This document shows positions 44,908-45,974 of a stretch of 64,000 nucleotides of DNA, piece after piece. The notes beneath the pieces are model-generated. The model was not told the origin of the DNA. It worked only from the letters and a program-made list of their open reading frames with translations, and did not search any database. The stretch's first letter is position 1, and every line of letters begins with the position of its first letter. The stretch is from a phage. The translations under genes were made by a program, and so were the position numbers. The DNA lies in the sequence record PZ452595.1, one strand, 5' to 3'.

Positions 44908-45768
44908 TTATACCGCCATCTTTCCTTTAATTGGCGGGTGAGATACATAGTCGTTAAGAACAAAATTATGCGGCTTTGCGAATTGACTCAACCAAAATAC
45001 CTGTGATTCTGTGTCCCATTCATCAAATTCATCTGGGAATTTTAATTGTAATTCGCATAAATCCATAGGTTCACGACGCAAAATTTCTTTACATTGTTCT
45101 ACGTGATTCATATAGATATGAGTATTACCGCCAGAAAATATCAAATCTCCCGGAATAAGATTACATATCTTAGCTACAATATGAACTAACGCAGCATATG
45201 ATGCAATATTAAATGGAAGACCGAGGAAAACATCTACTGATCGTTGATACCACTGAAGGTCAAGGTATCCATTACGAACATTAAATTGATAGAACATATG
45301 ACAAGGTGGTAATGCCATCTGCTTGAGTTCAGCTGGATTCCATGCTGAAACAATTTGACGCCTATCATTTGGCAGTTTTTTAATACGATCAATAACTTCT
45401 ATAATTTGGTCTACACCACCAAAATCACGCCACTGTTTTCCATAAATTGGACCAAGTTCACCGCTATGGTATCCTAAATCTTTTGCTTGATTTTCGTAAT
45501 TTTCATCCCAAACTGTTTTGCCTTGGATTAACGAATCATGTTGAATTAATCGCAAATCATTGACATTTGTGCTTCCCGATAAAAACCATATTAGCTCAGC
45601 AATGCAAGCTTTCCAGGCGAGCTTCTTAGTTGTTACTGCAGGAAAACCTTTAGTTAAATCCCAGCGTAATTTAGTACCGAACAAAGCAATTGTTCCTGTG
45701 CCTGTTCGGTCATCGGTTTCGTAGCCATTTTCCAGGATATCTTTAATTAAAAATTGGTATTGTTTCAT
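44908..45768 (-). CDS. td: Thymidylate synthase, uninterrupted
   Basis: Track start is TTG at 45780; the ATG at 45768 (MKQYQ...) gives 286 aa; continuous ORF with no intron. Confidence 0.93.
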
Positions 45769-45974
45769 TAGTTCATCCAAGAATATGTAGAAGGATATTT
45801 GGCAAAGTTAGGCTTATATCCTAATTTAACCATTTGTTTTGCTTTGCGAGTAAATCCTAAAGAACGCTCACCTTTAAGATATTGTTTTGGTGTCATAGGC
45901 CCTTGATGCATCTGCCGACAAATAAAAAGGGCCATAGCATTAGGAACATCCTTAACTTTTAATTTATTGCTCAT
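45768..45974 (-). CDS. Small basic protein inserted between frd and td
   Basis: 68 aa ORF; start overlaps the frd stop as ATGA and its stop overlaps the td start as TAATG. Confidence 0.55.

Follow-up and report, generated by a model that had tools for sequence, protein, structure and literature searches.

A small basic gene that overlaps both frd and td at the frd-td junction of a Tequatrovirus genome

Results

Gene content and overlaps at the junction

The window analyzed here, a 64,000-nucleotide stretch of phage DNA (sequence record PZ452595.1), is from a Tequatrovirus, and its closest record, Shigella phage ESh28, is 98.9% identical over the region from frd to td. Between these two genes, which encode dihydrofolate reductase and thymidylate synthase, lies a 68-codon open reading frame, referred to here as ORF68, that fills the gap exactly (Table 1). 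The window frd product is 97-98% identical in amino acid sequence to the annotated frd products of ESh28, AR1, and T4, and the td product is 99.7% identical to that of ESh28. The coordinates and translation of ORF68 agree exactly with those given in the initial annotation of this DNA, which did not mention that all of these genes are on the minus strand. The overlaps that it described at both ends of the ORF can be read directly in the sequence. At the first junction, TATATAAATGAGCAAT, the ATG of ORF68 (45974-45972) overlaps the TGA of frd (45973-45971) as ATGA, and at the second, GGATGAACTAATGAAACAA, the TAA of ORF68 (45770-45768) overlaps the ATG of td (45768-45766) as TAATG. Our alignment shows no variation across genera in the motif TGGATG, which falls in the final codons of ORF68, and the placement of TGGATG/GGATGA fits a Shine-Dalgarno (SD)-like element that would serve td. 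Stop-free windows of 68 codons made up only 0.86% in a shuffle of the window, which has a GC content of 36%. Two other small ORFs on the same strand resemble nrdA.1 and nrdA.2 of PHROG 464 and PHROG 2458, respectively; they overlap by 47 nt as listed, and the nrdA.1 homolog also weakly matches an NrdA-like PHROG.

Table 1. Features of the frd-td junction in the window and of the alternative inserts in related phages (L numbers denote the sequences of the phages named in brackets)
Feature	Position	Strand	Basis or remark
frd (dihydrofolate reductase), 193 aa	45971..46552	-	ORF list; TGA stop inside ATGA overlap with ORF68
ORF68, 68 aa, strongly basic, PHROG 9550	45768..45974 (stop codon included)	-	ORF list and sequence
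ATGA, overlap of ORF68 start codon and frd stop codon	45971..45974	-	sequence
TAATG, overlap of ORF68 stop codon and td start codon	45766..45770	-	sequence
GGATGA, putative SD-like element for td, within ORF68 codons W-M-N	45773..45778	-	alignment
td (thymidylate synthase), 286 aa, intronless	44908..45768	-	ORF list
Laterally exchanged tract, ORF68 and first ~55 nt of td	45713..45976	-	nucleotide comparison with Dhakavirus-like genomes
nrdA.2-like ORF, 91 aa	44624-44899	-	
nrdA.1-like ORF, 108 aa	44344-44670	-	
RB32ORF229c-type insert	L002 2084-2495 (RB51); L003 2111-2458 (AR1); L023 750-1097 (FelixPlatter)		
PHROG 1928 ORFs, one or two, between frd and ORF68	L007 2326-3004 (CIP9); L006 2643-2996 (Marfa); L008 2624-3004 (Serratia 4S)		

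A scan limited to sigma-70-like promoters and terminators found neither from 45700 to 46000 on the minus strand, and there was no Rfam match over the whole window. The predicted RNA folds at both junctions in four phages were no different from those of shuffled sequences, and the td start region has no significant RNA structure that would sequester it. ORF68 would therefore be expressed from the operon transcript, and its coupling to td would rest on the overlaps alone. The stop/start overlaps are kept in all of the T4-like loci that we examined, and ORF68 is presumably translated and coupled to td in vivo.

States of the frd-td junction in T4-like phages

The initial annotation described a direct frd/td overlap through ATGA in T4. 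This is right, as the T4 record M12742 places the end of frd at 218 and the start of td at 215, within TATATAAATGAAACAATACC. Compared with the T4 junction, that of the window is longer by exactly 206 bases, with AATGA at either end of the extra stretch. The flanking genes and the 3' end of frd are the same in the two phages, and ATGA serves as a translation start in both. However, the ATG within it is that of td in T4 and that of ORF68 in the window, where td begins 206 nt further on, behind the SD-like GGATGA. T4 td also contains a group I intron with I-TevI, which the window td lacks. Among relatives that carry ORF68, a td intron is present in fFiEco06, fPS-65, D5505, PM105, and YUEEL01, and td is intronless in ESh28, sb3, and ESh26.

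A search with a 551-nt query centered on ORF68 placed the gene at the junction in approximately 136 of 570 matching phage records; presence was scored at ≥80% coverage of the query, which requires ORF68. An unrelated ORF of 115 amino acids, RB32ORF229c (PHROG 1928), lies at the junction in approximately 355 of 537 records and is found there in RB51, RB32, AR1, and T6. Like ORF68, it is small, patchily distributed, and interposed between frd and td, but where ORF68 overlaps its neighbors, RB32ORF229c in Tequatrovirus has non-coding spacers and a 9-bp direct repeat, TAAATGAAA, on its flanks, with an AT-rich, promoter-like spacer before td. Records from the BASEL collection label RB32ORF229c a "putative homing endonuclease"; Pfam and PDB profile searches found no nuclease domain in the PHROG 1928 ORF. 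The empty, T4-type junction accounted for 3 of 21 sampled full-coverage rows, or roughly a tenth of records, a frequency that is an estimate: matches can seed on the RB51-type left flank through the 9-bp repeat, and a count with asymmetric queries was therefore only partly successful. The record counts therefore describe the frd-td junction as a three-state slot that is empty (T4), contains ORF68, or contains the unrelated PHROG 1928 ORF, with T4 in the rare state.

Aligned across T4-like genomes, the junction bears out the difference from T4 that drew attention to ORF68, but many relatives carry the gene and it is no anomaly of the window genome. More than 130 phage records include an annotation of this ORF at 95-100% identity, and the empty junction of T4 is in the minority. 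"Inserted", the word chosen in the initial annotation, is a reasonable description relative to T4. Loss in T4 is equally possible, since distant T4-like phages have the order frd, PHROG 1928 ORF, ORF68, td. In Marfa, CIP9, and Serratia 4S, a PHROG 1928 member is present upstream of ORF68, with two members in CIP9, and these paralogs have a C-terminal GRFxKxGxExYF motif in common. ORF68 and RB32ORF229c were not seen together in the Tequatrovirus genomes inspected. These arrangements suggest that both families may at one time have been present in the slot. Insertion into a T4-like junction and loss from a frd-PHROG 1928-ORF68-td ancestor are equally possible directions of change.

Distribution and genomic context of ORF68 homologs

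ORF68 matches PHROG 9550 with an E value of 1.3e-45 over residues 1-68 of the 68-position profile. By tblastn, the protein is encoded in 238 records; identity is ≥95% in 134 of these and 99-100% in at least 89. It is usually annotated as a "hypothetical protein" in phage records, and the window ORF does not differ from the hypothetical protein annotated between frd and td in Tequatrovirus, of which it is a member. For example, the ORF in the Shigella phages ESh28, Sf21, and pSs-1 and in Escherichia phage vB_EcoM_ACG-C40 encodes a protein that is 97-100% identical, with the same position and overlaps as in the window. A few records, MH809535 (PYPS2T), PV390659 (vB_EcoM_P8), and MZ502379 (Shinka), label it "flagellar biosynthesis protein" or "DUF4858". 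A Pfam scan did not reproduce the flagellar label, and DUF4858, the label in MZ502379, gave no Pfam match at E values up to 1.

Homologs are also present in the Dhakavirus phages JS98, JS10, and CLB_P2, in Klebsiella phage Marfa (Marfavirus), in Enterobacter phage CIP9 (Kanagawavirus), and in Serratia phage 4S. The JS98 RefSeq record NC_010105 leaves its homolog (L009 3001-3207), the protein of which is 98.5% identical to that of the window, unannotated, with a gap of ~200 nt between frd and td. In all five of the T4-like lineages examined (Tequatrovirus, Dhakavirus, Marfavirus, Kanagawavirus, and Serratia phage 4S), ORF68 is directly 5' of td with an overlapping stop and start, which is TAATG in JS98, Marfa, and 4S and GTGA in CIP9. 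The ATGA overlap at the ORF68 start is also found in CIP9 and Serratia 4S, where another gene lies upstream. It can recur with PHROG 1928 upstream because the second codon of ORF68, AGC, always supplies the A.

Outside the T4-like phages, the context of the gene is different. In phAPEC8, the homolog gp235 (43% identical to ORF68) belongs to an extended series of small hypothetical genes that share one strand close to the end of the genome; the thymidylate synthase gene is 35 kb away, on the opposite strand. The distant homologs phAPEC8 gp235, P0023, P0024, and P0028 also match PHROG 9550. The metagenomic homologs (on contigs L010, L011/L012, and L024-L029) are inside arrays of small, unannotated same-strand genes typical of early regions, with neither td nor frd nearby and no td within 3-5 kb. 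The absence of td near these distant homologs indicates that the td linkage is a property of T4-like genomes. We found no recurrent neighbor around the distant, non-T4-like homologs apart from one pair (L010 5869-6273 and L024 2846-3757; 35% identical, E value 4e-19), the sole neighbor common to two such contigs, which is 0.6-0.9 kb downstream of the ORF68 homolog. One copy (L020 893-1097, IMGVR_UViG_2938479101_000007) aligns as two pieces that overlap but are not in the same frame, which suggests that it is frameshifted and possibly inactivated, or that the sequence contains an error.

Selection on ORF68

Pairwise dN/dS for ORF68 is 0.12-0.28, compared to 0.12-0.37 for frd, and 15 close and 9 distant homologs align over the full length of ORF68. 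The conserved residues are K4, K6, P11, R20, K34, G40, A45, M48, L51, G52, Y53, and P55. ORF68 is a genuine gene under purifying selection. We searched 1.84 billion cluster representatives exhaustively with a profile and obtained 11 matches at E ≤ 0.001, of which ten are genuine. These ten are stand-alone proteins of 70-96 amino acids, and all members of the family are stand-alone and full-length, at 66-96 amino acids. The family comprises 10 clusters at 50% identity, all from phages. P0026, a tandem-repeat protein of 1402 amino acids with six short profile matches (VPSALGLHVCHQG), was set aside as it looks spurious and repeat-amplified. None of the 1.84 billion representatives is a larger parent protein of ORF68. 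A profile search likewise found no paralog among the ORFs of the window, and there is no similarity between ORF68 and I-TevI (profile score 0.3 bits).

Exchange of ORF68 between Tequatrovirus and Dhakavirus

The nucleotide identity between the window and JS98 is 98.6% in ORF68, compared to 78.4% in frd, 77.4% in td, and 78.8% in nrdA. Correspondingly, dS is 0.05 for ORF68 and 1.1-2.0 for the flanks. Constraint at the nucleotide level was considered as a cause of this identity and rejected, as ORF68 has accumulated synonymous changes relative to Marfa and CIP9 (dS 0.9-1.2); the identity with JS98 is therefore due to recent common ancestry. ORF68 moves laterally between Tequatrovirus and Dhakavirus.

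The exchanged tract has 3-6 mismatches in ~260 nt between Tequatrovirus and Dhakavirus-like genomes, compared to ~20% divergence outside. On the left it begins 2 nt before the ORF68 ATG, the nearest mismatch in the flank being at -3, and on the right dense mismatches resume at td nt 56-57. Isolated mismatches are located at td nt 12-21 (one in JS98 and three in L014) and at nt 54 (L014). The 5' allele of td is common to Tequatrovirus genomes that carry ORF68 and Dhakavirus-like genomes, whereas T4, RB51, and AR1 have MKQYQDLIKDIF. The td residues that travel with ORF68, D6F and F12L, do not occur in Marfa, CIP9, or 4S. The simplest reading is that one crossover occurred at or beside the ATGA microhomology and a second, homologous crossover occurred in the conserved 5' end of td. 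The left boundary at ATGA is very sharp, unlike what ordinary homologous recombination would leave, and may reflect a more specific process.

Predicted properties of the protein

As the initial annotation stated, the product of ORF68 is a small basic protein. It has 13 K/R and 2 D/E residues, a net charge of +11, and a pI of 10.3. The family is basic throughout (net charge +7 to +16, pI 9.75-10.5), with seven conserved K/R columns. AlphaFold2 with a 24-sequence alignment produced a model with a pLDDT of 83.6, in which helices span residues 13-24, 29-39, and 43-49; the N-terminal arm is rich in Lys and the C-terminal tail is aromatic. A model from 15 close sequences alone was of poor quality, at a pLDDT of 62, and was not used. 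Structure prediction thus yielded a confident three-helix model but no match to a known fold. A Foldseek search of the PDB gave E values above 4, PDB sequence-profile searches returned noise only, and the BFVD contained only the protein's own orthologue.

Neither ORF68 nor any other family member matched Pfam (E up to 1 for ORF68), NCBIfam, or PADLOC. Sequence profiles and structure gave no indication of a helix-turn-helix fold in ORF68, and Pfam, the I-TevI profile, and structure gave none of a homing endonuclease domain (GIY-YIG, HNH, or LAGLIDADG) or of the DNA-binding domain of a homing endonuclease gene. No PADLOC-DB family was found for the 25 members of alignment A4; PADLOC models defense rather than anti-defense systems, and therefore this is a weak test. 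A regulator or a nucleic acid-binding accessory protein, as proposed in the initial annotation, fits the charge and the predicted helical structure. A basic protein of this type could equally target an acidic protein instead of nucleic acid. Our literature searches, which covered RB32ORF229c, the frd/td hyperplastic region, and accessory-gene screens, found no study of ORF68.

Discussion

ORF68 is an already annotated and fairly common accessory gene with a patchy distribution. We think it probable that it is a dispensable member of PHROG 9550 that forms a fixed pair with td in T4-like phages. By means of the ATGA overlap with the preceding stop codon, ORF68 would use the translation start that in T4 belongs to td, and ribosomes would be handed on to td via the TAATG overlap behind the embedded GGATGA. 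The gene is exchanged between lineages as a cassette of ~260 bp, consisting of the ORF and the first ~55 nt of td; the left crossover would lie at most a few nucleotides from the ATGA microhomology and the right crossover in the conserved 5' end of td. Its product is very basic and is predicted to be compact and three-helical. It would bind a polyanion early in infection, whether nucleic acid or a highly acidic partner, and its role would be auxiliary and not essential. Taken on its own, the biochemical part of this proposal, an early, dispensable, polyanion-binding protein, is tentative.

One alternative is that ORF68 is an anti-defense or host-takeover factor, a small early protein that neutralizes an acidic host protein, with host-specific selection behind its patchiness. 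Accessory regions of phages have been described as a general concept (bioRxiv 10.1101/2023.04.06.535777), and variable presence among near-identical phages combined with lateral transfer is a hallmark of accessory and counter-defense genes. The homologs in phAPEC8 and in metagenomic phages are, moreover, within blocks of small early-type genes. However, ORF68 is located in a nucleotide metabolism operon rather than in a classical accessory island, it matches neither PADLOC models nor known anti-defense families, and the screen reported in bioRxiv 10.1101/2023.04.06.535777 does not mention the frd-td locus. We consider this explanation rather unlikely, though possible.

A role for ORF68 as a partner of Td or of the dNTP-synthesizing complex, such as a small subunit, assembly factor, or regulator whose stoichiometry is fixed by coupling, is less probable still. 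The strict linkage to td in T4-like phages could reflect a Td-related function instead of mere synteny, as the gene is directly 5' of td in five lineages whatever its upstream neighbor (frd or PHROG 1928), and it evolves at a rate similar to that of the flanking enzymes. Yet T4 and about three quarters of Tequatrovirus records have the same Td without ORF68, and away from the T4-like phages the linkage does not hold: a distance of 35 kb separates the phAPEC8 homolog from td, which is on the opposite strand, and other homologs are without td within 3-5 kb. The residues D6F and F12L are not found in td of Marfa, CIP9, or 4S. Position-preserving homologous exchange explains the linkage without a functional tie, and the linkage is thus not evidence for a Td-related function. 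A site-specific, homing-like conversion hotspot at the frd/td overlap, a small Td partner or regulator with a new fold, or both, would explain why ORF68 is always joined to the td start and why the tract begins within 3 nt of ATGA, but we regard these readings as distinctly unlikely.

Spread of the cassette by homing-like, break-induced gene conversion, with ORF68 as the essentially selfish cargo of a trans-acting endonuclease or as a hitch-hiker of the td intron (I-TevI), appears quite improbable. The sharply bounded, near-identical tract with its short, asymmetric co-conversion into td has the form expected of such a process, as does the patchy distribution of ORF68, and the second insert at the same junction, with its 9-bp repeat, is called a putative homing endonuclease by some annotators. 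On the other hand, ORF68 has no nuclease motif and no relative among the window ORFs or in I-TevI, and the PHROG 1928 ORF is also without a nuclease domain. The conversion tract ends ~490 nt before the td intron site, and td is intronless in both the window and JS98. Purifying selection also argues for a function beyond selfish spread.

We can dismiss as very improbable the suggestion, made in part in the initial annotation, that ORF68 is what is left of a larger mobile-element gene in decay, such as a homing endonuclease reduced to its DNA-binding domain, or else an unexpressed chance ORF, because its small size, its position between two conserved genes, and the apparently frameshifted relative on L020 are outweighed by stand-alone members conserved over their full length across genera, a dN/dS of 0.12-0.28, the lack of a larger parent in 1.84 billion representatives, the lack of nuclease features or of similarity to I-TevI or any window ORF, and a probability of ~0.9% that such an open frame arises by chance.

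Our analysis adds nothing new on gene content, because ORF68 has already been deposited and catalogued. Its interest is as a clean natural example of a gene slotted into an overlapping start/stop junction with the architecture for translational coupling unbroken, and of cassette-like exchange between the genera Tequatrovirus and Dhakavirus. The family itself is tiny, restricted to phages, and without known fold relatives. If either a Td interaction or a counter-defense role were true, ORF68 would be a compact tool that could be easily knocked in and out in T4, which is naturally without it.

Two groups of phage genes offer points of comparison. The seg and mob genes of T-even phages, which encode free-standing homing endonucleases, are located between conserved genes and are patchily distributed among close relatives. 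ORF68 resembles them in its sharply bounded transferred tract and in the co-conversion of adjacent sequence, but its product has only 68 amino acids and neither a GIY-YIG nor an HNH domain, and the gene lacks its own promoter. Morons and other genes of phage accessory regions are, like ORF68, laterally exchanged, with core genes on their flanks and an obscure benefit, and they are dispensable, as ORF68 probably is. Classical morons have their own promoter and terminator, whereas ORF68, with neither, overlaps the neighboring gene at each of its ends and would depend on translational coupling within the operon.
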